Assembly: GCA_964615775.1 (NCBI GenBank)
Contig: CAZTQB010000003.1
Location: 39,172 to 103,171 of the forward strand
Length of the DNA: 64,000 bases
Reading direction: 5' to 3'
DNA from: an uncultured Candidatus Saccharibacteria bacterium
GTDB lineage: Bacteria; Patescibacteriota; Saccharimonadia; Saccharimonadales; 2-12-FULL-41-12
Below the pieces are notes generated by a model that saw only the letters and a list, made by a program, of their open reading frames with translations, was not told the DNA's origin and ran no database searches. Made by a program: the position numbers and the translations under genes. This document shows, one piece after another, positions 11,123 through 26,175 of this stretch; the first letter of the stretch is position 1, and the number at the start of each line of letters is the position of its first letter.

Positions 11123-11542
11123 GTGTCAACGGTAGTTGTTGTGTCAGGTATTTTGCTGAAAAATAACAAAATTTTATTAGCCAAAAGGTCGTCGACTAAA
11201 AAAATAGCTCCAGGTGAGTGGCATATTCCAGGTGGACATGTTGAGTTTAGTGAGCATCCAAAACTATCACTGGAGCGTGAGTTTATGGAGGAACTACAAC
11301 TAAAAGTCGAAGTCACAAAGCCATTAGCCGTCCATTCTTTTGTAGAAGATAGTGAGCATGTCATAATCATAACTTTTTTGGTTAGAACAAAAGAAATCCC
11401 AAAAGTTATTAAATTTGATTCAAGTGAGACAGCCGAAGTAACTTGGGCTGATATTACAGAATCACGCCAATTGCTGCCCAAGCAAAAACACGACTACAAA
11501 ACTATCGAAATTATAAACGATTTTGGCACTCTTGATTCTTGA
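11123..11542 (+). CDS. NUDIX hydrolase
   Basis: Nudix box GGHVEFSEHPKLSLEREFMEELQL. GTG start. The 3' end overlaps the hrcA CIRCE element. Confidence 0.8.
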   Translation: MSTVVVVSGILLKNNKILLAKRSSTKKIAPGEWHIPGGHVEFSEHPKLSLEREFMEELQLKVEVTKPLAVHSFVEDSEHVIIITFLVRTKEIPKVIKFDSSETAEVTWADITESRQLLPKQKHDYKTIEIINDFGTLDS

Positions 11543-11549
11543 GTGCCAA
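11523..11549 (+). promoter_or_regulatory. CIRCE operator (HrcA binding site) with embedded promoter for hrcA
   Basis: TTGGCACTC-N9-GAGTGCCAA against the consensus TTAGCACTC-N9-GAGTGCTAA. The loop begins with TTGATT (-35), and TATAAT lies at 11555-11560. Confidence 0.8.
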
Positions 11550-11567
11550 AAAGTTATAATACCTTTT

Positions 11568-12278
11568 ATGATAACTGATAGACAAGCCCAGATTTTGTGT
11601 GCCGTAGTCGAGCAGTATGCCGAGGTAGCTGCCCCTGTAGGTAGTAATTTGTTGGCTAAAGTATTTAACGTATCAAGTGCCACAATTCGCTCAGAAATGG
11701 CAGAGTTAGAGCGAAGTGGCTATATTGAGCAGCCACATACCTCAGCTGGGCGTGTACCGACAGATAAAGGCTATCGTTTTTATGTCAATCAATTCAATGA
11801 GCAAGCCACTAGCTCTAGTTTGGATAGACGAGCAGAACGAGCTTTAGCGGCTAGAGTTGAATCAGGCGGGGCATCGGTTGATAGAACTATTCGTAACGCT
11901 GTCGATACACTTGTGGAATTAACTCACAACTTAGGCATTGGTACTATTGGTGATAGGTTTTATATGTCAGGTTTGACCAATTTATTTAATCAACCAGAAT
12001 TTGCCAGTGGTGAACATGTGCGTGATGTGGCCAGACTGTTAGATAACTTAGAACCATGGCTTTACGAGGTTGCTCCTAATGAGCCGCTAAGTGTTTATAT
12101 TGGTCATGAAAATCCAATTGGTCGTAACAGTGGCTGTAGTCTAATAATTAGCCGATTTAGAAGTCCTTATAGTGACCGAAGCTATGTTGGAGTTCTAGGT
12201 CCGACTCGCCAAAGTTATGGCCAGGTTATGAACTTGGTTAAGCGAACTGGCGAGGCGTTAGAGGAAACGTTATTTTAA
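11568..12278 (+). CDS. hrcA: Heat-inducible transcription repressor HrcA (short form)
   Basis: MITDRQAQILCAVVEQYAEVAAPVGSNLL and the HTSAGRVPTDKGYRFYV winged-helix region. The start was moved to ATG 11568 because the track start (TTG 11523) is the CIRCE arm itself. Confidence 0.85.
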   Translation: MITDRQAQILCAVVEQYAEVAAPVGSNLLAKVFNVSSATIRSEMAELERSGYIEQPHTSAGRVPTDKGYRFYVNQFNEQATSSSLDRRAERALAARVESGGASVDRTIRNAVDTLVELTHNLGIGTIGDRFYMSGLTNLFNQPEFASGEHVRDVARLLDNLEPWLYEVAPNEPLSVYIGHENPIGRNSGCSLIISRFRSPYSDRSYVGVLGPTRQSYGQVMNLVKRTGEALEETLF

Positions 12279-12290
12279 AAGAGGTGATTT

Positions 12291-12770
12291 ATGAGTAAAG
12301 ACAGTAAAAAACCAGTCGACTACCAAAAAGTTGCAGAAGAATTGGCTGCCGAAAATACCGGACTAACCGAGGCACTGCAACGTGAACGAGCTGATGTAAC
12401 CAATATTCGTCGCCGGCATGATGAACAATTATTAAGTTTGAAATCATCGATAAAAGCTCAAGTTATTACTGAGTTACTGCCTGCCCTTGATAATTTAGAG
12501 CGAGCCTTAAAACACACTCCCAAAGATATTGCAGACCATGACTATGTAAAAGGTATAAGTGGTGTAGTTAAACAGTTTGAAAAAACTCTATCCGATATAG
12601 GAGTTGAGCGAATCAAGACTGTTGGCCAGCCATTTGACGCTAATCTGCATGAAGCGGTTAGTATGCAAGAAGCTGGCGGCAAGAAAGAGCTAGTTTCGGA
12701 AGAGCTACAGTCTGGCTATAAGATTGGTGACGATGTGATTCGTCACGCAATGGTAAAAGTTACAAGATAA
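12291..12770 (+). CDS. grpE: Nucleotide exchange factor GrpE
   Basis: RERADVTNIRRR, PALDNLERAL and FDANLHEAV motifs. The position between hrcA and dnaK fits. Confidence 0.9.
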   Translation: MSKDSKKPVDYQKVAEELAAENTGLTEALQRERADVTNIRRRHDEQLLSLKSSIKAQVITELLPALDNLERALKHTPKDIADHDYVKGISGVVKQFEKTLSDIGVERIKTVGQPFDANLHEAVSMQEAGGKKELVSEELQSGYKIGDDVIRHAMVKVTR

Positions 12771-12836
12771 GCCTTTTGAATTTAACATAAGCAGTGTTAC
12801 TATGAGGTTAGTATTTTATTTTAAATCAAAAACAAA

Positions 12837-13478
12837 GTGCCAGCTAGCTCAGTACTCACCAGAGAAAAAATCGATATTCCTGAAGTTTTACAGGGGGTTG
12901 AGAGCTTGGGGGCTACACAGCATTTGTCGTACTTAGGAGAGGTTTCGCCTGACTCATATCGTCATTCACTGGCGGTAGGAAACCTAGTTTTAGGGGCATG
13001 TGATTATTATGGTGTAGGTAGCAAAGACACATATACTGCTGGGGTAGCAGCAGTGTTACATGATATCGGCAAAGCTAATCCAGAGGTTGTAGGTCTTGTT
13101 AATTCCGAACATGAGCTAACAGATAATGAGAGGCAAATTGTGGCTGGCCATACTTTTTCAGGTCAAGTTTTATTGTGCGGCTTGTATAGCCAAGCCAAAC
13201 GAACTGGCTTAAAAGAGTTGTTGATTCAGGCTGAGCATACGGCTGGCTATCATCATACACCAATAAATGAGATCGATAATGACATAACGACTTTAGTTAC
13301 GCTAGCCGATAGAGCTGAGGCCACTTCGGGTCCTTTAAGGCCTTATCAAAGAACAAGATTGGCACTTAAGCCTCATGAGCTGCTATCTGTTGCTGAGCGT
13401 GAAGTTTCAGTTTTTGATCAAGATCCACTAGAGTTAATTAGATTTTTCCAAGCCGCTTGCCTAAAAAACAGAAAATAA
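12837..13478 (+). CDS. HD-domain phosphohydrolase family protein
   Basis: H...HDIGK motif (AVLHDIGKA) plus downstream His-rich GYHHTP. GTG start. It lies inside the heat-shock operon. Confidence 0.6.
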   Translation: MPASSVLTREKIDIPEVLQGVESLGATQHLSYLGEVSPDSYRHSLAVGNLVLGACDYYGVGSKDTYTAGVAAVLHDIGKANPEVVGLVNSEHELTDNERQIVAGHTFSGQVLLCGLYSQAKRTGLKELLIQAEHTAGYHHTPINEIDNDITTLVTLADRAEATSGPLRPYQRTRLALKPHELLSVAEREVSVFDQDPLELIRFFQAACLKNRK

Positions 13479-13481
13479 AAA

Positions 13482-13508
13482 TTAGCACTCTTGACATGTG
13501 AGTGCTAA
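13482..13508 (+). promoter_or_regulatory. CIRCE operator 1 upstream of dnaK, with embedded -35
   Basis: Perfect consensus TTAGCACTC-ttgacatgt-GAGTGCTAA. The loop starts with TTGACA, and TATTAT lies at 13515-13520. Confidence 0.9.
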
Positions 13509-13529
13509 TTTTGGTATTATCTTTAAGTA

Positions 13530-13556
13530 TTGGCACTTACATATATTGAGTGCTAA
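13530..13556 (+). promoter_or_regulatory. CIRCE operator 2 in the dnaK leader
   Basis: TTGGCACTT-acatatatt-GAGTGCTAA, 22 nt after the first CIRCE. Confidence 0.8.
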
Positions 13557-13615
13557 AATATAACTACGAATTTTAATAATTAAATATAAATAAAATATAA
13601 CGACGAGGAGTAAAA

Positions 13616-15520
13616 ATGGGAAAGATAATAGGAATTGATTTAGGTACAACTAACAGTGCGATGGCAGTTATGCAATCTGGCAAACCAGAAATTATTGCTA
13701 ATAGCGAAGGTAATAGAACTACGCCAAGTGTAGTTGCGATTGGCAAAAACAAAGATCGTTTGGTTGGCCAAGTAGCTAACCGTCAACGCGTAACCAATCC
13801 TGAGAACACAATTTTTGGTGTAAAGCGACTAATAGGTCGTAAATTTACGGATAAAGAGGTCCAAAAAGATATCAAACTTATGCCTTTTAAGATTGAGAAA
13901 AAAGGTTCAGGTGTGCAGGTGGAGATGGACGGCAAAGGCTATACCCCAGAGGAAGTCTCGGCTATGATACTTAGTAAGCTTAAGGCTGATGCTGAAGCCT
14001 TCTTGGGTGAGCCAGTAACAGAGGCAGTGATTACCGTACCGGCTTATTTTGATGATTCACAACGTCAGGCTACCAAAGATGCTGGTAAAATTGCAGGACT
14101 AGAAGTTAAGCGTATAATCAATGAGCCAACTGCTGCAGCACTTGCCTATGGGCTGGAAAAAGGCAAGGAAGAGAAAATTGCAGTTTTTGACCTTGGTGGT
14201 GGTACGTTTGATGTGTCAATTTTGCAGCTTGGTGATGGTGTTTTTGAGGTGTTAAGTACTAATGGCGATACACATCTAGGTGGTGAAGATTTTGACCTAC
14301 GGATTGTTAACCATTTTGTTGATGAGTTTAAAAAAGAATCTGGCATAGATGTAACCAACGACAAGGCTGCTATGCAGAGGCTAAAAGAAGAAGCCGAAAA
14401 AGCAAAAAAAGAACTGTCAACTACAGAGGTAGCAGATATTAATTTGCCATTTCTTACGGCTGACGCCGATGGCCCAAAGCACTTCGAGTATAAATTGACT
14501 CGAGCTAAATTGATCGAGCTAGTTGGTGATTTGATTGAGAAAACCGCTGTTCCTTGTGAGAAAGCTCTAAAAGATGCCAAATTGAAAGCTAGTGACATAA
14601 ACGAAGTAATTTTGGTTGGTGGTATGACTCGTATGCCAGCTGTGATTGAGGAAGTTAAGAAGATCTTTGGCAAAGACCCTAAACAAGGCGTTAACCCGGA
14701 TGAAGTTGTAGCAGTTGGTGCGGCTATCCAAGGTGGTGTTTTGCAAGGTGATGTTAAAGATGTGTTACTGCTTGACGTAACTCCTTTGAGTCTTGGTATT
14801 GAAACTATGGGTGGTATTGCCACTAAGCTAATCGAGCGTAATACTACTATTCCAACATCTAAGAGTGAAACATTCTCGACGGCTGCCGACAACCAGCCAA
14901 GTGTAGAAATCCATGTTGTGCAAGGTGAACGCGAAATGGTAACCGACAATAAATCACTAGGCCGATTTGTGCTAGACGGCATTGCTCCAGCACCGCGTGG
15001 GGTACCGCAAATTGAAGTAATATTTAACCTTGATGCTAACGGAATATTGAATGTAACGGCAAAAGATAAAGGTACTGGCAAAGAGCAGAGCATAACTATC
15101 CAAAACAGTGGTAATTTGTCTAAAGATGAAGTTGAAAAAGCAGCTAAAGAAGCTGAAGCACATGCCGAGGAAGATAAGAAAAAACGTGAAGCAATTGAAG
15201 TTCGTAACAACCTTGAAAATGCCATCTATCAGGCAGAAAAGCTGAAGAGTGACAGTAAAGACAAACTATCTGAAGATGACATTAAGTCTATTGAAGAGGC
15301 AACTGAAGTGGCCAAGAAGGTTCAAGTTGACGAAAAAGCTGACAAAGAAGCCATAGAGGCAGCTCTAAAAGAGCTAAATGATAAAATCATGCCAATTGGT
15401 GCAAAAATGTATGAACAGGCCGCCAAAGAAGCTGAAGCCAAGAATAGTGAAGAGTCTGACAAGAAAGCCGATGACAAAGATGAGCCAGTAGAAGGCGAAG
15501 TTGTCGACGACAAAAAGTAG
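13616..15520 (+). CDS. dnaK: Chaperone DnaK (Hsp70)
   Basis: [17 protein letters not shown] and [11 protein letters not shown] signatures. RBS GAGGAG lies upstream. Confidence 0.97.
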
Positions 15521-15550
15521 TTTTTTATTAAATAAACTAAAACTCTACTA

Positions 15551-15592
15551 AATAGCCCCTTAAGGAGTAGTCTACTCCAGGGGCTATTTTAA
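15551..15592 (+). terminator. Rho-independent terminator after dnaK
   Basis: AATAGCCCCT (15551-15560) pairs with AGGGGCTATT (15579-15588), followed by a T tract. Confidence 0.7.
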
Positions 15593-15670
15593 TTGTGCTT
15601 AAATATTTTTAATAGTAGTAGGTTATAAACTAAATAAGGAAAAAGTATGAAACATTGAAATCCAATTATT

Positions 15671-16114
15671 GTGGCACTGCTCATGTTAGTAACACTTGGA
15701 ATCTACCAAATATATTGGGAAGTTGTAACCAAAATAGAAATGACCAAAAAAGGGGCAGACATTCCTACATCGTGGCTTATAATTATACCGATTGTTAACT
15801 TGTGGTGGGCCTATAAGTATTGTACGGGGGTAGAAAAAGTTACTAATGGGAAGATGTCTGGAGTACTGGCACTGGTATTGTATTTTTGTCTGAGCATTAT
15901 TGGTTTGGCGATTATTCAAGATGCCTTCAATAAAGTAGATGCAGTACCAACCATAAGCCAGCTTAACCCACAGGGTCCGTTGCAAAATAATCAATTTACT
16001 TCAACTTCTCAGCCTCAGTCAACACCGGCATCTACTTTCACTAGCTCAGATCAGTTGCAGACTCAATATCAACAGCCTCCAACTAACCCCAGCCTACCTT
16101 TATCACTTGTTTAG
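15671..16114 (+). CDS. DUF4234-like small membrane protein with a Q/P/S/T-rich tail
   Basis: LGIYQIYW motif and two or three TM segments. The GTG start lacks an SD, and an in-frame SD-ATG-AAA-CAT-TGA lies 24 nt upstream (see findings). Confidence 0.55.
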   Translation: MALLMLVTLGIYQIYWEVVTKIEMTKKGADIPTSWLIIIPIVNLWWAYKYCTGVEKVTNGKMSGVLALVLYFCLSIIGLAIIQDAFNKVDAVPTISQLNPQGPLQNNQFTSTSQPQSTPASTFTSSDQLQTQYQQPPTNPSLPLSLV

Positions 16115-16131
16115 AAAGTTTATATTAAAAA

Positions 16132-16166
16132 AGCTAGACTTTGTTTCGTTAGAAATTAGTCTAGCT
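16132..16166. terminator. Bidirectional terminator between convergent genes
   Basis: AGCTAGACT (16132-16140) pairs with AGTCTAGCT (16158-16166), flanked by an A tract and a T tract. Confidence 0.6.
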
Positions 16167-16186
16167 TTTTAGCTTTATCTAGCTGA

Positions 16187-16819
16187 TTACTTCGAGCGGC
16201 GAACCTTGACCTTGGCTGGAGCTGTTGCTCTAACTTTAGTTTGAGCTTCCATGGCTAATGGCACCATCCAACCGGCTACATAAGCACCTAAGACACCACC
16301 GATCAGTGGTCCGATGATTGATGATACAGATGTATTTTGAAGTCCGAATGCGAGAGCTGGATTAACTACACCGCCTAGCATGCAACCCAAGAACAACGAG
16401 CCACCGAAGGCAGCTGCCAGCTGGATACCTTTCAGTCCTTGATTTAGTGCTAGAACTCCACCCATCAAAAATATAGCACCACCTAAAATCTCTATAACTA
16501 AACTTTTGGTGTCAATCGCCGTGAAGTTAAATTTTAGACCAGACATATCGCTGGCACTAATATACTCGTATACTACTTTAGCAATTAAAGCACCGGCTAG
16601 CTGAGCCACCCAGTACATTGCCATCTTAGTAGCATTGATCTTCTTAACAGCTGCTAAGCCTATAGACACTGCTGGGTTAACGTGTGACCCTGAGATGCCT
16701 CCGATAATTAGCATTAAAACACCTAGTGCCACAAATGGGTTAACGCCCATCAGCACCGCCATTGTCAGCAGGAACGTACCAACTAACTCAGCAATGAGTA
16801 TTATGTTATTTTTGTTCAT
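16187..16819 (-). CDS. MIP-family channel (aquaporin/glycerol facilitator)
   Basis: Two NPA boxes (HVNPAVS, VNPALAF) and six TM segments. Strong RBS AAGGAGGG. Confidence 0.9.
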   Translation of the reverse strand: MNKNNIILIAELVGTFLLTMAVLMGVNPFVALGVLMLIIGGISGSHVNPAVSIGLAAVKKINATKMAMYWVAQLAGALIAKVVYEYISASDMSGLKFNFTAIDTKSLVIEILGGAIFLMGGVLALNQGLKGIQLAAAFGGSLFLGCMLGGVVNPALAFGLQNTSVSSIIGPLIGGVLGAYVAGWMVPLAMEAQTKVRATAPAKVKVRRSK

Positions 16820-16957
16820 CTTCCCTCCTTAGTTATGGAATAACTTAAATTAATCATAAAAAATTTCAAAAATCAATAGGTTAGGTAACACATATTTTTA
16901 ATATTTAGGCTTAATAATATAGATACGAGCATAAATCCTAGTAAGGAGGGGAACAAC

Positions 16958-17353
16958 ATGCAAGAAGAACAAACAACAGAAGTAAGAGAAACAAATGCCG
17001 TTGAAGGTGATACTAATATAAAACGTCAAACCGTGGCTACCAGTAATGCTGCGTCGACTACGACAGTAGTTGGCAGATTAATCTGGTTTGTCATTGGATT
17101 TATCATAGTGATGTTAGCCCTGAGAGTTTTACTGCTATTGCTTGGAGCCAATAAAGGAAATGCGTTTGTAGATTTAGTTTATGGTATAAGTGGGGTATTC
17201 GCTTGGCCATTTTATGGAATTTTTGGTTATGAGCCGAGTTATGGTAAATCAGTCTTTGAGGTCAGTTCTGTGGTGGCGATGTTAGTTTATGCCTTGATCG
17301 GCTGGGGTGTTGCTAAGCTGGTAACTATTGGGCAAAAGCACCCAGATGCTTAA
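16958..17353 (+). CDS. Small membrane protein, unknown function
   Basis: Strong RBS AAGGAGGGG and two or three hydrophobic helices. No motif was recognised. Confidence 0.5.
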   Translation: MQEEQTTEVRETNAVEGDTNIKRQTVATSNAASTTTVVGRLIWFVIGFIIVMLALRVLLLLLGANKGNAFVDLVYGISGVFAWPFYGIFGYEPSYGKSVFEVSSVVAMLVYALIGWGVAKLVTIGQKHPDA

Positions 17354-17383
17354 AATCTTTATTATTTAATTAATTTTCAGAAA

Positions 17384-17410
17384 CTAGCACTCTTGAATAT
17401 GGAGTGCTAG
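17384..17410 (+). promoter_or_regulatory. CIRCE operator with embedded promoter for dnaJ
   Basis: CTAGCACTC-ttgaatatg-GAGTGCTAG. The loop starts with TTGAAT (-35), and TATTAT lies at 17416-17421. Confidence 0.8.
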
Positions 17411-17427
17411 TTTTGTATTATATATGT

Positions 17428-18531
17428 ATGTCTAAAAGAGATTATTATGAGGTTTTAGGTATAGCCAAAACTGCCTCTGATGACGAGATAAAAAAAGCTT
17501 TTCGCAGAAAGGCAGTAGAGCATCACCCCGATAAAACCGGTGGTGATGATAAAGCATTTAAAGAGGTGAATGAAGCCTATGAAGTTTTAAAAGACTCTAA
17601 TAAGCGTCAACGTTATGATCAATTTGGCCATGCTGGAGTCGGTGGAGCGTCCGGTGGCAGTAACCCATTCGAAGGTTTTAGTGGTTTTGGTGGCAATGCT
17701 CAGGAAATGCATTTTGATTTTGGTGATATTTTGGGTGATCTTTTTGGGGGTAATTTTGGTGGTAGACAACAAAGAAATACTCGCGAAGCTCGAGGTAACG
17801 ATGTAGAAACAGCTGTAGAAATAACTTTTGAGAATGCAATATTTGGCCTAGAGCATGATCTAAGAATAGACTTGGAAGATGTATGTGAGCATTGCAAGGG
17901 TACAACGGCCGAACCAGGCCATGAATTGAAAGTTTGTGATACCTGCAAAGGTTCCGGCCAAGTAGTACAGGCTGTGCGAACTGTGTTTGGTAATATTCAA
18001 CAAGCTATTACTTGTAAGACCTGCCGTGGAACTGGTAAGGTACCTGAAGTTGCATGTAGTGTTTGTCATGGCAAAGGTACTAAAAAAACCAATCAAGCAA
18101 TCAAGCTTAAAATTCCAGCTGGCATAGATGATGGAGCTACAATTCGTTTAAGCGAAAAAGGTGAGGCAGTTGCTAACGGCAAAAAAGGCGACATGTACGT
18201 GCATGTCAGGGTCAGGCCGCACAAAAAGTTTACACGTGAAGGTCAATTAATACTTAGCCGTGAACATGTTGGCATGGTTGATGCGGTCCTAGGTACTGAT
18301 ATAAAAGTAGACACTGTCGACGGTGAGGTTGTTATGAAAATTCCGGCTGGTACCCAGAGCGGAACTGATTTTAAACTATCTGGTCATGGTGTGCCGCATT
18401 TAAAGACGGGTAATCGTGGATCTCAGATTGTTACAATAATCGTAGATACACCAACTAAAATTTCCAAAAAACAGAAGGAACTTTTAGAAGAGTTTAGAGA
18501 AAGTTCAAAAAAATCATTCTTCGGAATTTAA
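17428..18531 (+). CDS. dnaJ: Co-chaperone DnaJ
   Basis: J domain MSKRDYYEVLG...HPDK, G/F-rich region and four CxxCxGxG zinc-finger repeats. The start was set at ATG 17428. Confidence 0.93.
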   Translation: MSKRDYYEVLGIAKTASDDEIKKAFRRKAVEHHPDKTGGDDKAFKEVNEAYEVLKDSNKRQRYDQFGHAGVGGASGGSNPFEGFSGFGGNAQEMHFDFGDILGDLFGGNFGGRQQRNTREARGNDVETAVEITFENAIFGLEHDLRIDLEDVCEHCKGTTAEPGHELKVCDTCKGSGQVVQAVRTVFGNIQQAITCKTCRGTGKVPEVACSVCHGKGTKKTNQAIKLKIPAGIDDGATIRLSEKGEAVANGKKGDMYVHVRVRPHKKFTREGQLILSREHVGMVDAVLGTDIKVDTVDGEVVMKIPAGTQSGTDFKLSGHGVPHLKTGNRGSQIVTIIVDTPTKISKKQKELLEEFRESSKKSFFGI

Positions 18532-20333
18532 GACTTGATTAATCTTGCTAATTTTTGTGAATATAATTTTGCTGAAAATGCAGTTAGAGATAGGGCTTGA
18601 ATAGTTGCAAATAAGTAAAGTAACTTTTTAGATACTTTTGTTTCGGGCAGTGGGCCAATACCAATATCAATATAATTATTTGGTATTTTTTCACCTTGAA
18701 CAATTTGCGGGCTATCATATTGGTTATCAAAGTTGGTGATTAGCTCAGAGGAAGTATCGATGTTGCCGTCACCATTTATATCGACTGCTACATCATTATT
18801 ACCATCACCATCAAAATCAGCAATGAATTGTCCAGACTGGTTAGGTTTGACTGTATTGGGTATAGGTACAATTTTATTAACCCCTGATCCAGCAATAGTA
18901 ACAAGTGGAACCGAGCTTGGATTGGTTGGGTTATTTGGTGGAGTTGTTGGCGGTGTAATAGGTCCTCCCGGCTGTTGGCTAGAAGAGACCAGACTAAAGT
19001 TTATCCAATTAAGTGTATAGGAAGAGCCTGTTACCTCAGCTCGTAGTTTTTTACCATTGCCTCCAGGTAGGCTAATATTTTGTAAGCTAATTGTTTGGTA
19101 TTTTTGCCACTCACCAGTGTTAGGAATATTGGCAGTTGCGATTGTTGTACCGTCTAGTTTTAAGGTGATTTTACCTGTAGCAATAGCTGATCCAACTCTC
19201 ATATCTATGTTGTATTTGCCAGCCTGTACGTTAGTTGTATATTCTTGCCACTCACCTGGTTCATTCCACCCAACATTAAAGCCTCCCTCGCTAGAATTTT
19301 CTATATCTACCCCGTCAGAACGATATTTGCCGCCCTGATTTGAAGAACTCGAATCATGATAAGCTACACCCTCACCACCTTCGTCGTAGTTTTCAGCTTC
19401 GATCTTGCCAGGTATCGGCCAATTATTGCCTAGGTAAGGTTTACGTTGTTGCTGCTGTGGCGGTGGCTGCGTAGGTACAACTGGTGTACCAGTATTATTA
19501 GTTGGTACACTACCAAGCGATGCTTCGTCCCAAGCCATCTTAAAGCTATCCATATATAAAATAGCTGTCTTTGCTAAATCATCATTTCTGTACATACCGC
19601 CTTTTACATATAGTGGAGGACTAGTAATGTTATCAACCCCAGACTTATCTAGTACTTTACTACCGTTATGCCATAGTTCAATTCTTCCTGAGTCTCCCCA
19701 GGTTACGTGCATTTTAAAGTTGTGCCATGAACCACGATTCATGGGAGCTTGCCAATAGTAATTCCATCTAGAACCATCACTTACCCCAAGAGCAATATTA
19801 TCATTGGAGGCAAAGAAGGCCATTGGTGGTGATACACTGTCATTACCATGCCACTGTAAGAATATTTGCCAGCCACCATTTGCCGGTTGAGTTGGATAAC
19901 TTGGGAAGGTTGGATCAAACATTGATGACCAAGAGTACCAACGATTCTCACCCTTCTGTTCGTTAGTCTGAGTAGTAAACTCACTTCTAGCAGTATTAGC
20001 ACAACACCACTGAGCTAGTGGATTATCTCCCTTTCGGAGTTCAATACGAGCCATACCAGCACCTTGCACAGGCTTTACGCCATTATCCGCTTGAGAAACA
20101 ATCCGTAGTCTGTCAGATGACACTCGTTGTAAACCCTGACCAGAAAAGTCAGTATCAAATGGTATGTTGAGAATCATGCCAGTGGCTGCTTTAGAATCTC
20201 TTGAATGCTGTAATATAGCAAAAGCTCCAAAGGCTGCACCAATAATTATTAATGCCATAGCCAACATTACTAATTTGGAGCTAAATAGTAGGGATTTTCT
20301 GCCTACACCTTTTTGTTGACTATTGGATTTCAT
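18528..20333 (-). CDS. Secreted/anchored jelly-roll (polysaccharide-lyase-like, ConA-fold) protein with CBM6-like module, Ca-binding loops and a C-terminal anchor
   Basis: - N-terminal signal anchor.
- Pattern ARSEF...QWHG...WHNFKMHVTW...IELWHNG...YVKGGMYR, typical of heparinase-I/glucuronan-lyase-type folds.
- CBM6-like IEAENYDEGGEGVAYHD...GEWQEY...TGEWQKY.
- DFDGDGNNDVAVDINGDGNID.
- LPETK followed by a hydrophobic helix and a basic tail. Confidence 0.7.
   Translation of the reverse strand: MKSNSQQKGVGRKSLLFSSKLVMLAMALIIIGAAFGAFAILQHSRDSKAATGMILNIPFDTDFSGQGLQRVSSDRLRIVSQADNGVKPVQGAGMARIELRKGDNPLAQWCCANTARSEFTTQTNEQKGENRWYSWSSMFDPTFPSYPTQPANGGWQIFLQWHGNDSVSPPMAFFASNDNIALGVSDGSRWNYYWQAPMNRGSWHNFKMHVTWGDSGRIELWHNGSKVLDKSGVDNITSPPLYVKGGMYRNDDLAKTAILYMDSFKMAWDEASLGSVPTNNTGTPVVPTQPPPQQQQRKPYLGNNWPIPGKIEAENYDEGGEGVAYHDSSSSNQGGKYRSDGVDIENSSEGGFNVGWNEPGEWQEYTTNVQAGKYNIDMRVGSAIATGKITLKLDGTTIATANIPNTGEWQKYQTISLQNISLPGGNGKKLRAEVTGSSYTLNWINFSLVSSSQQPGGPITPPTTPPNNPTNPSSVPLVTIAGSGVNKIVPIPNTVKPNQSGQFIADFDGDGNNDVAVDINGDGNIDTSSELITNFDNQYDSPQIVQGEKIPNNYIDIGIGPLPETKVSKKLLYLFATIQALSLTAFSAKLYSQKLARLIKS
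19467..20329. repeat. 863-bp direct repeat, copy A (5' two-thirds of the jelly-roll gene)
   Basis: Reads identical base for base to 20952-21814 (offset 1485 bp). The identical antisense ORFs at 19781-20002 and 21266-21487 in the ORF track corroborate this. Confidence 0.9.
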
Positions 20334-20429
20334 TTTAGCTTCAATTATTTTTCAAAACTCATATATAAGATTACTATACACCTTAGTTTGTTAACCTAGA
20401 AGTTTCTTCGAGGTTTATTTATTAAGTTT

Positions 20430-21857
20430 TTAGTAGTTAAATTTATAGTTGGTGACCTGAATCAACCGACTGCTGCCATATGTACTATTACCAAAGCTTG
20501 GAATCGATACATTACCAAAGCAGTATCTAGACTGTTGACCAAGAGTAACTGTTGCGGTCTTTGACTGTGTTTTACCGCCAGTATTATCTATAGTCCATAA
20601 TTTCTTATCAGAATCATCTGCATAGAAGTAAACTGTGTTACCATATTTCGCGTTTACATTAGCTGTGAAGGTTATAGATTTAGGAACTGCTGACCCGGCT
20701 GGTCGTGCAATACAATATCTGCCATATTGATTGGATTTATAACCCCTTTTGTTGCTATCGAATTGTACCAAAAGATTTCTGCTGTTACTTAGTGTCATGG
20801 GTGTTGAAACTGTACTGTTAACCACTCCTTCGCCTTTTTCCCATTTTGACCAGTCGTTGGGAGCAAGTGTAGATGATGTCGCTACGGGTGTAGGAGCTGG
20901 GCTAGGACTAGCAGTGTTGGTCTCTACTGTGGGTGTAGGAGCTGGTGCGGTCTGCGTAGGTACAACTGGTGTACCAGTATTATTAGTTGGTACACTACCA
21001 AGCGATGCTTCGTCCCAAGCCATCTTAAAGCTATCCATATATAAAATAGCTGTCTTTGCTAAATCATCATTTCTGTACATACCGCCTTTTACATATAGTG
21101 GAGGACTAGTAATGTTATCAACCCCAGACTTATCTAGTACTTTACTACCGTTATGCCATAGTTCAATTCTTCCTGAGTCTCCCCAGGTTACGTGCATTTT
21201 AAAGTTGTGCCATGAACCACGATTCATGGGAGCTTGCCAATAGTAATTCCATCTAGAACCATCACTTACCCCAAGAGCAATATTATCATTGGAGGCAAAG
21301 AAGGCCATTGGTGGTGATACACTGTCATTACCATGCCACTGTAAGAATATTTGCCAGCCACCATTTGCCGGTTGAGTTGGATAACTTGGGAAGGTTGGAT
21401 CAAACATTGATGACCAAGAGTACCAACGATTCTCACCCTTCTGTTCGTTAGTCTGAGTAGTAAACTCACTTCTAGCAGTATTAGCACAACACCACTGAGC
21501 TAGTGGATTATCTCCCTTTCGGAGTTCAATACGAGCCATACCAGCACCTTGCACAGGCTTTACGCCATTATCCGCTTGAGAAACAATCCGTAGTCTGTCA
21601 GATGACACTCGTTGTAAACCCTGACCAGAAAAGTCAGTATCAAATGGTATGTTGAGAATCATGCCAGTGGCTGCTTTAGAATCTCTTGAATGCTGTAATA
21701 TAGCAAAAGCTCCAAAGGCTGCACCAATAATTATTAATGCCATAGCCAACATTACTAATTTGGAGCTAAATAGTAGGGATTTTCTGCCTACACCTTTTTG
21801 TTGACTATTGGATTGAAATAGGTTTATTTTGTTTCTTAAGCTAGATTTCTTTTTCAT
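20430..21857 (-). CDS. Secreted jelly-roll (polysaccharide-lyase-like) protein, paralogue with a different C-terminal beta-rich module
   Basis: About 288 aa are identical to the upstream paralogue. A PT-rich linker (TAPAPTPTVETNTASPSPAPTP) follows, then an unrelated 150-aa module. Confidence 0.7.
   Translation of the reverse strand: MKKKSSLRNKINLFQSNSQQKGVGRKSLLFSSKLVMLAMALIIIGAAFGAFAILQHSRDSKAATGMILNIPFDTDFSGQGLQRVSSDRLRIVSQADNGVKPVQGAGMARIELRKGDNPLAQWCCANTARSEFTTQTNEQKGENRWYSWSSMFDPTFPSYPTQPANGGWQIFLQWHGNDSVSPPMAFFASNDNIALGVSDGSRWNYYWQAPMNRGSWHNFKMHVTWGDSGRIELWHNGSKVLDKSGVDNITSPPLYVKGGMYRNDDLAKTAILYMDSFKMAWDEASLGSVPTNNTGTPVVPTQTAPAPTPTVETNTASPSPAPTPVATSSTLAPNDWSKWEKGEGVVNSTVSTPMTLSNSRNLLVQFDSNKRGYKSNQYGRYCIARPAGSAVPKSITFTANVNAKYGNTVYFYADDSDKKLWTIDNTGGKTQSKTATVTLGQQSRYCFGNVSIPSFGNSTYGSSRLIQVTNYKFNY
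20952..21814. repeat. 863-bp direct repeat, copy B
   Basis: See copy A. The boundaries fall at codon 4/17 on the 5' side and at the domain linker (VVPTQ) on the 3' side. Confidence 0.9.
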
Positions 21858-21981
21858 GACCGATTATTCTTCTTATTTTCTTTACTATACTATAACCATA
21901 GCATATGAGTTTTGAAAGTACAAACTACTTGTGGATAAAATTGAAATTTATATAAAAAATTATTATAATTACACCTTAGAT

Positions 21982-22095
21982 ATGAACAGACAAAAAGACC
22001 AAGCTGGCTTTATAACAATGATAGTAGTCATGGTTATACTTATTATTATAGTTGTCGGCCTAGCCTATATGAGAGTCAAGGCCAAACACGGCTAA
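21982..22095 (+). CDS. Possible 37-aa single-TM peptide (MNRQKDQAGFITMIVVMVILIIIVVGLAYMRVKAKHG)
   Basis: TATAAT at 21964-21969, ATG at 21982, TAA at 22093-22095. The polar head, hydrophobic helix and basic tail vaguely resemble a prepilin but lack Glu5. Confidence 0.3.
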   Translation: MNRQKDQAGFITMIVVMVILIIIVVGLAYMRVKAKHG

Positions 22096-22112: not shown

Positions 22113-23396
22113 CTATCTTAAGTCTTCAAGTCCTTCAAAAGCTGTATGACTAGGATTGGTAGGATCAAACTTGCCTTGAGTAAGGTAGTCATGGATATCG
22201 TCGATACTATGGCCAGCGGCAAGCTTTTCATTTATAAAGCCTACTACTTTTATATAGCCCTGGTAATAAGCGATATCTTTAGTAAATATAGCCTGAGTAC
22301 CGTCAGCATTATCTTCGCCTTTACTGCCTCTATAGTAGCGAGCAACTTTTTTCCAGCACTTATCTTCAATTTTTTGATAGTCAACTTCTTTTTCTTTTTT
22401 TGATTCGGCTAAGATTGCTTCTGCACGGGCAACCATGAAAAGTTCACCGCGTGTCATTTGCTTGCCGTTTAAAGAACCTAAGGCAAACGCTATTAAGTGA
22501 TAATGAACTGGATCTTTTTCGGAATAGTCTCCGGCTACTGCTTTTTCTGACAATGTAGCAAGCCCTTCCTCGGCATCGATATAATCAGGCAATCCTGTGC
22601 CGAGTAGTTTACCTTTCTTGTACCCATTCACAGATCTTTTTACATGAGTTAATATTTCATGGGTAACTAGAAGTTTAAGTTGTTTTCTACTTACTGGTGG
22701 CTTATTTTTTGCTACGATAATCGTTTTTTCATCGGTATTGACAGCTGTGGATGTTCCTTCGCTTATGTCAACTTTCCAGTCGCTAAAACCGGGGTCATCA
22801 TGGTGACTTAGCCAGTTTAGTACTTCCTCAAAGACTGTAGTTAAGTTTTCTGGGCCATTTTCATCACTATCTAGACCGTCGATATATTCAAAAATCTGAC
22901 CATATCTACCTTGAAGTGATTCCCCGAGTTTTTCTATAACGGTGTTTTGGTCAATTTCTGTCTCAAATGTTTCTTCTGAACATTCCTTTAATTGGTCTGA
23001 GTAAAACTCTCTCAAAAAATTTACTTCTTTTTGTTGCTCTGGGCCAAAATTATCCAAATCATGGAGTCTTTTTCTGACAATATCTACAACTACCGCCTTA
23101 TCAGGTTCGCCGTATAACTCAATTGATGCTTTGGTAAATTGTTCACGAGATTCTTTAGATGGTTGTCTGGTAAGCCTATCTGCATATCTGATTAGACCGC
23201 TGATAGCAACTTCACGAGCAGCAGCTTTCTCGGCAACTGGATCATTACTTCTGTTATATTTGTCCCACCGTTGTGCATCAAGAAATTCTTCTTGCAATGC
23301 GGCATCAGCTAAATGTGGTTGTCCTAAAGTTTCTAAGCCATGTCCAGTAACTGTAAATGCGTGTATGGGTTTTGGTTCGGGTATTCTTGATTTCAT
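22113..23396 (-). CDS. DUF1704-family putative metallocarboxypeptidase (QEGLA-motif protein / MATCAP-like)
   Basis: HExxH zinc motif (THEILTHV) followed by AEEGLATLSE, which corresponds to the family's QEGLA signature. It is divergent from the rimK operon. Confidence 0.6.
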   Translation of the reverse strand: MKSRIPEPKPIHAFTVTGHGLETLGQPHLADAALQEEFLDAQRWDKYNRSNDPVAEKAAAREVAISGLIRYADRLTRQPSKESREQFTKASIELYGEPDKAVVVDIVRKRLHDLDNFGPEQQKEVNFLREFYSDQLKECSEETFETEIDQNTVIEKLGESLQGRYGQIFEYIDGLDSDENGPENLTTVFEEVLNWLSHHDDPGFSDWKVDISEGTSTAVNTDEKTIIVAKNKPPVSRKQLKLLVTHEILTHVKRSVNGYKKGKLLGTGLPDYIDAEEGLATLSEKAVAGDYSEKDPVHYHLIAFALGSLNGKQMTRGELFMVARAEAILAESKKEKEVDYQKIEDKCWKKVARYYRGSKGEDNADGTQAIFTKDIAYYQGYIKVVGFINEKLAAGHSIDDIHDYLTQGKFDPTNPSHTAFEGLEDLR

Positions 23397-23478
23397 ATAC
23401 TATATTGTATCATAAAGTATCATATTTGTAAATATGGTGATATTGATTTTTTGATAAAAAAACACTATAATATATTTA

Positions 23479-23907
23479 ATGGATTCAAAAATAATTGGCA
23501 TAATTGAAAATGTGGTTTTTCCTGATTTTGATAATCTAGAAATTGATGCAAAGATAGACACCGGAGCTTATACTGGGGCTCTACATAGCACCAACATACA
23601 TGTAGAGAGAAAAAACGACAAAAAAGTATTATTCTTTTCGCCATTTGATCATCCAGAAATTGTGCATAAGACCAACGATTTTAAAGTTGGCAATGTAAAA
23701 AGCTCTAATGGCCACATACAGGAGCGTTATTTTATTAAAACTCGGGTAAATGTGAGAGGCAATATTTATCCAATTACGTTAACTCTAACTGATAGGTCGG
23801 AAATGAGATCACAACTACTAATAGGTCGACGGTTTTTAGCAGCTTATGATTTTTTAGTTGACGTGAAGCAGACCTCTGGGATATCTTTAGCTGAAAAGGA
23901 CGATTGA
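23479..23907 (+). CDS. Retropepsin-like putative protease (RimB / PF05618-like)
   Basis: Contains AKIDTGAYTGALH (DTGA aspartic-protease-type motif). Its stop overlaps the rimK start region. Confidence 0.65.
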   Translation: MDSKIIGIIENVVFPDFDNLEIDAKIDTGAYTGALHSTNIHVERKNDKKVLFFSPFDHPEIVHKTNDFKVGNVKSSNGHIQERYFIKTRVNVRGNIYPITLTLTDRSEMRSQLLIGRRFLAAYDFLVDVKQTSGISLAEKDD

Positions 23908-23909
23908 TT

Positions 23910-24812
23910 ATGAAGATAGCGATATTATCTAAAGGACCTGACAATTATTCAACCATGAGACTTAAGCAAGTTGCTGAGAATCGTGGACATGATGTAATGG
24001 TTATAAATTATGCAAAATGTTATGTGACTATTCAGCGAGATGAGCCGGTGATTCGTTATATGGGCGAAGATATTTCAGGCTTTGACGCAATTATTCCGCG
24101 GATTGCTTCTAGCTTGACTAAATACGGTACTGCAATGGTACGGCAATTTGAGGCACAAGGGTCATTTACGACCGCTAGCTCAATTGCAATTGCTCGTTCG
24201 AGAGACAAACTTAGGAGTATTCAAATTTTAGCTAAATCTGGTGTGAGTATCCCAAAAACTGTCTTTGCTCGTGACACTGCCGACTTGGATGATGTGATAG
24301 AACAGGCTGGCGGTACGCCGTTAATTATTAAGGTTGCTCGCGGTACTCATGGCAATGGTGTTGTACTGGCTGAGACTAAAAAAGCAGCTCAAGCTGTAAT
24401 GCAGGCTTTTTATGTGGAGGGAGTGAGCTTTTTAGTACAGGAGTTTATTAAAGAGTCGGCCGGTACAGATATCAGGGCATTTGTAGTTGGTGGTAAGGTG
24501 GTGGCTAGCATGGAGCGTCAGAGCTTAGATGATGACTTTCGATCTAACATACACCAAGGCGGCATGGGTAATCCAGTAAAACTGACTGATGAAGAGCGAA
24601 AGACTGCACAAAGAGCAGCAAAAGCTATGGGTCTACCAATCTGTGGTGTAGATATGATGCGTTCAGAAAGAGGGCCGTTAGTTTTGGAAGTAAATTCAAG
24701 TCCTGGTTTTGCGATAGAGAAAATGACTGGTAGAAATGTAGCCGAGAAAATAATTGAGTATGTAGAAAATAATGCTAAAGGACGTAGACGAAAAGACCGC
24801 GTTGGTGCGTAA
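23910..24812 (+). CDS. rimK: ATP-grasp alpha-L-glutamate ligase RimK
   Basis: MKIAILS..., IIKVARGTHGNGV and LEVNSSPG ATP-grasp motifs. The start was set at ATG 23910. Confidence 0.85.
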   Translation: MKIAILSKGPDNYSTMRLKQVAENRGHDVMVINYAKCYVTIQRDEPVIRYMGEDISGFDAIIPRIASSLTKYGTAMVRQFEAQGSFTTASSIAIARSRDKLRSIQILAKSGVSIPKTVFARDTADLDDVIEQAGGTPLIIKVARGTHGNGVVLAETKKAAQAVMQAFYVEGVSFLVQEFIKESAGTDIRAFVVGGKVVASMERQSLDDDFRSNIHQGGMGNPVKLTDEERKTAQRAAKAMGLPICGVDMMRSERGPLVLEVNSSPGFAIEKMTGRNVAEKIIEYVENNAKGRRRKDRVGA

Positions 24813-25791: not shown

Positions 25792-26175
25792 TTAAGAGTT
25801 CGAAGGAGGTGGTGGAACTACACCGTTATTGTCTGGTGTTTGAGGAGTGATACTTGGATCGCTAGCTGGTGGTTGAGGCTGAGCAATAGAGTCGACACCA
25901 GGCACCGGGTTTATCGGCTGCGGATCAGCTGGCGGCATAGGTGCAGGGCCAAAAGTTGGCTGCATTTGCTCAGTAGGAGTTGGCTGTTGATTGCTGGTGT
26001 CCATAGCTTGTGGCTGGTCTTGTGTTATTGGCTGTTGATCTGGCATAGCTTGAGTGTTGGTATCCAATGGATTATTTGGTGCCATAGGGTTCGCTGGCGG
26101 AGGTGTAGGCTGGCCAGTTTGCATTGAGTTAGAATTGTTTTTTTTGCCGAAGCTAAAGAGATTTGATAATTTCAT
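25792..26175 (-). CDS. Pro/Gln-rich low-complexity protein
   Basis: 127 aa, mostly P/Q/N/T/D. The opposite strand is also open because of the composition. Coding status is moderate. Confidence 0.4.
   Translation of the reverse strand: MKLSNLFSFGKKNNSNSMQTGQPTPPPANPMAPNNPLDTNTQAMPDQQPITQDQPQAMDTSNQQPTPTEQMQPTFGPAPMPPADPQPINPVPGVDSIAQPQPPASDPSITPQTPDNNGVVPPPPSNS

Follow-up and report, generated by a model that had tools for sequence, protein, structure and literature searches.

An optional MATCAP-type peptidase beside the rimB-rimK genes of Saccharimonadales may act on poly-glutamate tails

Which enzymes write and erase amino-acid tails at protein C-termini in a bacterium with a reduced genome, and do they form a module? 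The question is raised by three adjacent genes in a stretch of 64,000 nucleotides, hereafter the window, from an uncultured Candidatus Saccharibacteria bacterium (Saccharimonadales; contig CAZTQB010000003.1). They encode a metallopeptidase of the DUF1704 family, transcribed divergently from the other two, a retropepsin-like protease and the ATP-grasp ligase RimK. The original prediction, made from the sequence alone, had proposed that RimK and the DUF1704 protein form a writer-eraser pair, by parallel with the enzymes that modify tubulin. We followed it up with Pfam and NCBIfam profiles for the family calls, sequence and profile searches of the PDB, the list of open reading frames (ORFs) of the window, and a comparison of related loci. 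We hold, with a little more belief than doubt, that the locus is a Rim module of the Saccharimonadales, a lineage of the Patescibacteria or Candidate Phyla Radiation (CPR), with an optional MATCAP-type peptidase likely acting on poly-glutamate tails.

The predicted ORFs, the 82-bp spacer and the HEILTH, EEGLA and DTGA motifs were all reproduced at their coordinates (Table 1), and Pfam, NCBIfam and PDB sequence searches agreed on the three families (DUF1704, retropepsin-like, RimK). RimK matches its two Pfam domains (PF08443, E = 1.4e-58, 198 bits; PF18030, E = 8.5e-35, 119 bits), passes the cut-off of TIGR00768 (254 bits, cut-off 143.4), comes near that of the S6-glutamate ligase equivalog NF007764 (325.3 bits, cut-off 331), and aligns from end to end with the solved RimK structures of Pseudomonas (7QYR, E = 4.5e-96) and E. 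coli (4IWX, E = 3e-85). The parallel with the tubulin ligase TTL holds to the extent that both are ATP-grasp ligases, the TTL profile PF03133 giving a weak match to RimK (E = 3e-4). The protein of 142 amino acids (aa) encoded upstream matches PF05618 (E = 1.4e-18, 67.6 bits; cut-off 27), and the best of four NCBIfam retropepsin models is RimB (NF052261, E = 1.4e-20, 73.6 bits; RloA1-3, 29-43 bits). In the PDB it matches the crystal structures of RloA (9G58 and 9G59), and its DTGA motif at residues 27-30 is invariant among 8 rimB orthologues.

The 427-aa protein falls inside DUF1704 (PF08014, E = 3.9e-19, 69.3 bits; gathering score 27), the placement by profile that had been set as a check, and Pfam now names this family MATCAP, in keeping with the equation of the two in the original prediction. 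PF08014 was present in all 38 homologues examined. The HEILTH motif reads H246-E247-x3-H251, i.e., the atypical HExxxH of the MATCAP family and not HExxH. In an alignment of 24 sequences, down to 20% identity, the residues H246, E247, H251, E276, E277 and G278 are invariant, as are R353, R356, G357, Y377 and G380. A profile of the family finds the structures of human MATCAP (KIAA0895L; 7Z5G, 7Z5H and 7Z6S; E = 6.7e-11) over a region that spans both motifs and the RG...KD..Y..G segment, and the two motifs align with HEIGTH and TEEGLA of 7Z5G. The AlphaFold2 model (predicted local distance difference test 91.6, predicted template modelling score 0.88) has a predicted helical N-terminal half of about 200 residues ahead of the catalytic domain. 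The catalytic motifs are intact. None of the MATCAP-like protein, RimB and RimK has a hydrophobic segment, the property we used to predict location, and RimB also lacks a signal peptide; all three are thus predicted to be cytoplasmic. Six public metagenomic contigs encode the identical 427-aa protein in an unchanged gene order, its named homologues are almost all from Candidatus Saccharimonadales or Saccharibacteria, and the family profile retrieves about 3900 clusters at 50% identity. Fusions of MATCAP to a ligase or a retropepsin were absent from the 38 homologues and from the 150 best representatives (255-495 aa).

RimK adds alpha-linked glutamates to the C-terminus of RpsF and also makes free poly-alpha-glutamate (PMC7343187, PMC11957791, PMC12239564). 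RimB, an endopeptidase of retropepsin type, takes these glutamates off RpsF again and stimulates RimK (PMC7343187, PMC11957791), including its synthesis of poly-alpha-glutamate; tail cleavage together with RimK stimulation is known only for RimB of P. fluorescens and the RimBK hybrid of D. psychrophila (PMC11957791). Since RimB has been shown to erase the glutamates that RimK adds, the established writer-eraser pair is RimK/RimB, and the protease partner already has the role that the original prediction took to be undefined. A cycle of ligase and peptidase on C-terminal tails is still reasonable, but the DUF1704 protein would be its second peptidase. Eukaryotic MATCAP/TMCP1 and TMCP2 are carboxypeptidases that strip C-terminal glutamates and shorten polyglutamate chains; from alpha-tubulin, MATCAP/TMCP1 takes first the terminal Tyr and then Glu, and TMCP activity is lost on mutation of the Glu of HExxxH and of the downstream Glu (PMC10499314). 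These two glutamates correspond to E247 and E277 of the 427-aa protein. From this biochemistry and the matching invariant residues we infer that the bacterial protein is an exopeptidase on acidic tails.

The steps can be put together as follows. By homology, RimK would extend the C-terminus of a protein, most probably ribosomal protein S6, with alpha-linked glutamates at the expense of ATP, and free poly-alpha-glutamate could be another product. The predicted cytoplasmic RimB, probably translationally coupled upstream, would cut the glutamate tails endoproteolytically and modulate RimK. The MATCAP-like protein would most likely work in the cytoplasm on the same acidic tails, shortening them residue by residue, in parallel with the shortening of polyglutamate on tubulin by eukaryotic MATCAP/TMCP. 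Alternatively, it may degrade the oligo-glutamate released by RimB back to free glutamate, and such recycling would suit an organism with little biosynthetic capacity, as CPR bacteria are generally seen.

The arrangement of the genes bears on how they could be expressed together. We placed the start of rimK at ATG 23910: the product then begins with MKIAILS, aligned to residue 1 of the solved RimKs, and the same 300-aa product is called on four public contigs. The stop codon of rimB is therefore followed by 2 nt and the rimK ATG, without overlap, a layout that suggests translational coupling of the two genes. The overlap claimed in the original prediction would be of 4 nt and exists only with a start at TTG 23904, which the alignment to solved RimKs and the public gene calls disfavour. 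The 82-bp spacer carries, as matches to the consensus only, a promoter-like pair on each strand, TTGATT-17-TATAAT on the plus strand (23443-23471) and TTTACA-17-TACAAT with a TG on the minus strand (23432-23404), both agreeing at 10 of 12 positions. For the spacer overall the enrichment is only modest (20 found, 12.3 expected). Because the -10-like hexamers of both strands end 8 nt ahead of the respective start codons (23404-23396; 23471-23479), transcripts from these candidate promoters would be leaderless or have very short leaders on both sides. The MATCAP-like gene and rimB-rimK may be co-regulated from this common spacer. The inverted repeats seen there are weak and AT-rich only.

We then compared the locus with those of relatives from two sides. 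From the side of RimK, a scan of metagenomes yielded 80 loci whose RimK is 74-86% identical; the upstream sequence is long enough in 61 of them and reaches at least 7 kb in 29, and 56 have at least 1.2 kb downstream. From the side of MATCAP, a scan with 12 of the 24 aligned sequences as queries, each GTDB species being represented by a single genome, yielded 22 loci, in which rimB and rimK were called by tblastn and ORF clustering over about 8 kb on either side. Over about 100 related Saccharimonadales loci, nearly every long one holds the unit grpE-dnaK-dnaJ-(variable slot)-rimB-rimK-(DUF192)-membrane protein. Throughout the clade rimB-rimK stands directly 3' of the hrcA-grpE-dnaK-dnaJ cluster, a placement that may stem from shared control with stress responses or simply from a conserved order of genes. 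In 60 of the 61 loci rimK is preceded by rimB, either on its own or joined to an additional ATP-grasp domain. The original prediction had taken the retention of all three genes as a sign of an important function; this retention applies to rimB-rimK but not to the MATCAP-like gene, a relative of which is near rimK in 8 of the 61 loci and in 5 of the 29 with long upstream sequence. It had also confined the module to these three genes, but the two genes beyond rimK are conserved as well: all 56 loci have a membrane protein gene after rimK (or after DUF192), and in 35 of them (63%) a DUF192 gene stands between rimK and the membrane protein gene. In the window, the DUF192 gene overlaps the 3' end of rimK by 41 nt and is likely co-transcribed with it; the literature searched gives no function for DUF192.

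Seen from MATCAP, 9 of the 22 loci (L012, L013, L016-L020, L022 and L028) have rimB and rimK in the same orientation a few kb further downstream, and in L023 rimK is 7 kb away, which brings the loci with RimK within 8 kb to 10; L025 has a convergent RimK-like gene near the MATCAP gene. Co-occurrence is far from random, a point that the original prediction had proposed to check. If a single-copy gene fell at random in 0.8 Mb of genome and the loci were independent, finding it no more than 8 kb away on one side or the other in 10 of 22 cases would have a binomial P of about 5e-12; the loci are related, and the value thus overstates the association. The divergent MATCAP-rimB layout is found in this genome alone; wherever else the genes adjoin, they are co-directional. 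In distant relatives from other CPR phyla (Paceibacterota, Kaiserbacteria and a third genome; L029, L032 and L033), DUF1704 adjoins a different cassette, made of an RloB-like seven-transmembrane (7TM) protein and a TIGR02291 'alpha-L-glutamate ligase-like' ATP-grasp enzyme fused to a retropepsin, with three additional ATP-grasp genes beside it in L033. This recurrence with a different set of glutamate-ligase-like and retropepsin genes is the strongest case against inherited synteny alone. The association between MATCAP, glutamate ligase and retropepsin is real, recurrent and above chance, but optional, whereas rimB-rimK is the obligate pair.

The contents of the variable slot, called with Pfam and NCBIfam, include MATCAP, sometimes as two tandem paralogs, extra RimK-like ligases, ATP-grasp_4 or L-amino-acid-ligase-type enzymes and one ATP-grasp_3 protein. 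In eight loci the slot encodes a GGDEF diguanylate cyclase, of 233 aa in L042 (6625-7326), with homologues in L053, L074, L075, L086, L095, L098 and L110; it brings to mind RimA, an EAL protein, and the control of RimK by cyclic diguanosine monophosphate (c-di-GMP) in Pseudomonas. Directly 5' of rimB-rimK, L107 (6257-7537) encodes a Mur-ligase-like protein that matches best to the C-terminal domain of cyanophycin synthetase (188 bits), a hint that the chemistry of some relatives may involve branched or mixed polymers of amino acids. RimB::ATP-grasp fusions of about 445 aa, of the RimBK hybrid type, precede a canonical RimK encoded on its own in L016 (1585-2913), L034, L039, L041, L047, L055, L080, L087 and others; many relatives thus have two or three RimK-like ligases in series. 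In L018 (7-2099), L019 (6389-11219) and L022 (6262-10839), rimB-rimK is preceded by a tandem pair of strongly diverged MATCAP paralogs and, between MATCAP and rimB, by a protein of about 590 aa with a HELSH motif. We considered the latter, an HExxH protein, as a diverged MATCAP and rejected it, as it matched neither the MATCAP profile nor any Pfam family.

How well does a tail-trimming role for the MATCAP-like protein stand against these data? Several points tell against it. The RimB score is far below the NF052261 equivalog cut-off of 200 bits. The 427-aa protein scores 60.9 bits against a cut-off of 338.65 on TIGR02421 ('QEGLA', flavohemoglobin-expression-modulating), the equivalog of proteobacterial DUF1704 proteins; judged by these scores, it is a member of the TIGR02421 superfamily that lies outside that subfamily. 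A Foldseek search of the PDB with its confident model did not recover MATCAP and gave weak matches to M3/M32 gluzincins (E > 0.1). We know of no bacterial DUF1704 protein with a demonstrated activity. The genes rpsF, rpsR and ssb were not found by tblastn in the window or in 113 related loci (1.09 Mb) with approximate E. coli and B. subtilis sequences as queries; the sole match, inside grpE, was spurious, and no protein of the window ends in Glu-Glu. Gene context adds further points: a MATCAP-like gene is absent near rimK in 24 of the 29 close relatives, 11 of the 22 MATCAP loci have no ATP-grasp gene within about 8 kb, and in the window the gene is divergently transcribed and outside the rimB-rimK operon. 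In Saccharimonadales, the adjacency of MATCAP and rimBK could in large part be a matter of inherited synteny and not of selected linkage. It is conceivable, and in our judgement quite unlikely, that the MATCAP-like gene only fills a recombination-prone slot and that rimB-rimK alone is the real system. The scarcity of the gene and its orientation here fit this explanation, as do the unrelated cargo of the slot (polysaccharide lyases in the window), the whole MATCAP subclade found elsewhere in the genome (L007-L011, L014 and L015) and the distant homologues of L030 and L031 (including Myxococcota), which have neither ligase nor cassette as neighbours. It does not easily account for the rimBK-adjacent MATCAPs, which fall in several deep lineages of a rough neighbour-joining tree and include paralogs, nor for the separate association of the family with glutamate-ligase-like/retropepsin cassettes in at least three other CPR genomes; moreover, what else occupies the slot mostly has a bearing on Rim biology, being amide ligases or c-di-GMP enzymes.

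The peptidase might also belong to the system and act on something other than existing ribosomal tails. RimK and the extra ATP-grasp or Mur-type ligases could make poly-alpha-glutamate or related peptides, turned over by RimB and the MATCAP-like peptidase as cyanophycin is by cyanophycinase, with DUF192 and the membrane protein linking the product to the envelope. Free synthesis by RimK and its stimulation by RimB are documented (PMC11957791), and this explanation gives a place to the L-amino-acid-ligase-type ATP-grasp_4 enzymes, the extra RimK-like ligases and the cyanophycin-synthetase Mur-like domain in the slot of relatives, to the constant membrane protein and to the frequent, anchored DUF192 protein; a 7TM protein is also part of the Rlo-type cassettes with DUF1704, which influence phenotypes of the envelope (PMC12239564). 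We think it unlikely all the same: RimK is close to the S6-ligase equivalog score and well conserved across the clade, which fits a conserved protein substrate, and neither an exporter nor a polymer-specific gene was identified. The order of events could instead be reversed, the MATCAP-like carboxypeptidase acting ahead of RimK to trim one or more non-Glu C-terminal residues and expose an acceptor Glu, on the model of the detyrosination that exposes Glu on alpha-tubulin. The successive removal of Tyr and Glu by MATCAP/TMCP1 (PMC10499314) and the S6 of some RimK-bearing bacteria, which does not end in Glu (PMC11957791), agree with such priming. Most close relatives have rimB-rimK without a MATCAP-like gene, so priming cannot be a general requirement; we regard it as improbable. 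Trimming of acidic tails by the MATCAP-like protein is the reading that we retain. A tentative and rather doubtful extension of it is that bacterial MATCAP proteins are true C-terminal tail trimmers which, with RimK-type ligases and a retropepsin, would form a three-enzyme ribosomal 'tail code' in minimal-genome CPR bacteria, a prokaryotic ancestor of the TTL/TTLL-MATCAP tubulin code. The slot between dnaJ and rimB, with its MATCAP, GGDEF, extra ligases and cyanophycin-synthetase-like domain, would then be a toolbox that diversifies tail chemistry and its control.

Four known systems help to place the locus. It is most readily compared with RimABK/RimBK of Pseudomonas, with which it shares the tightly coupled rimB-rimK order, a full-length RimK match to 7QYR, a cytoplasmic RimB with DTG and, in relatives, a c-di-GMP enzyme in the same locus. 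It differs in the lack of RimA (EAL), relatives having a GGDEF cyclase instead, in its divergent MATCAP-type accessory gene, in the conserved DUF192 and membrane protein genes downstream, in its position behind dnaK-dnaJ, in the low RimB score and in a substrate predicted by homology. The RimK of E. coli has the same orthodox fold and length, but its gene stands alone, without rimB or other partners (PMC10092738). The eukaryotic tubulin cycle (TTL/TTLL; MATCAP/TMCP1 and TMCP2, encoded by KIAA0895L and KIAA0895; CCP) likewise pairs an ATP-grasp ligase for acidic tails with a PF08014 metallocarboxypeptidase of HExxxH/EEG type. Here sequence similarity is limited to a catalytic core of about 170 residues, the bacterial protein having its own N-terminal helical domain; there is no tubulin, the target presumably being S6, and RimK chains are alpha-linked and C-terminal, not gamma-branched on side chains. 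Finally, the Rlo operon (secreted retropepsin RloA, inactive-transglutaminase 7TM protein RloB, TIGR02291 ATP-grasp RloC) and the QEGLA DUF1704 proteins comprise the same three enzyme families. The window differs from it by a genuine RimK (TIGR00768/NF007764) in place of TIGR02291, a retropepsin that lacks a signal peptide and is best classed as RimB, and a DUF1704 protein remote from QEGLA. None of the parts of an Rlo-type cassette (7TM transglutaminase, TIGR02291, secreted retropepsin) is present in the window; they were found in L029, L032 and L033 only.

The remaining genes around the locus are given in Table 1. The two polysaccharide-lyase-like paralogs of the slot are identical over their first 300 or so residues and differ in their C-terminal halves, a pattern that suggests a recent duplication in tandem; it is exactly at this repeat that public short-read contigs of the species break off. 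These genes and the 54-aa ORF are context, outside the mechanism. Just past the module, on the opposite strand (25792-26175, -), lies a 127-aa ORF, Pro/Gln-rich, of low complexity and with no family match.

Table 1. Position, strand and defining evidence of the features of the Rim locus and its surroundings (coordinates of the window).
Feature	Coordinates	Strand	Evidence
MATCAP/DUF1704-type zinc metallopeptidase, 427 aa	22113-23396	-	PF08014 match; HExxxH at 246-251, EEGLA at 276-280
Divergent intergenic region, 82 bp	23397-23478	.	Sequence and consensus scan
rimB-like gene, retropepsin-type aspartic endopeptidase, 142 aa	23479-23907	+	PF05618; D27-T28-G29-A30
rimK, alpha-L-glutamate ligase (ATP-grasp), 300 aa	23910-24812	+	PF08443 and PF18030, TIGR00768
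DUF192 protein, 155 aa	24772-25239	+	PF02643, E = 1.8e-30; one N-terminal hydrophobic anchor, residues 9-36
Multi-pass membrane protein, 161 aa	25276-25761	+	4-5 hydrophobic segments; no significant Pfam family
Rest of the variable slot, dnaJ to rimB	18528-22095	-	Two polysaccharide-lyase-like paralogs, plus a 54-aa ORF on the + strand
Polysaccharide-lyase-like paralogs	18528-20333; 20430-21857	-	PF14099, E = 4e-33
Heat-shock synteny anchor	11523-18531	+	Pfam: hrcA 11523-12278, grpE 12291-12770, dnaK 13616-15520, dnaJ 17404-18531

Writer-eraser control of RimK tails is already known, and the linkage of DUF1704 to ATP-grasp enzymes is reflected in curated family annotations; the locus introduces no new principle. 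Iyer et al. in 2009 reportedly described these gene neighbourhoods. Literature searches on DUF1704, on QEGLA and on KIAA0895 together with ATP-grasp returned nothing relevant, and the literature searched made no mention of RimK in Saccharibacteria. The near-universal retention of rimB-rimK in genomes of about 0.7-0.8 Mb suggests that ribosomal glutamate tailing or poly-glutamate metabolism matters for these epibionts. The main interest of the locus lies in this pair, kept behind the dnaK operon in a lineage of reduced genomes, and in the tractable test that it offers of what bacterial DUF1704 proteins do. The MATCAP-like neighbour provides a simple, soluble bacterial system with which to probe this large family, and the same system could show whether deglutamylase or detyrosinase chemistry predates tubulin.

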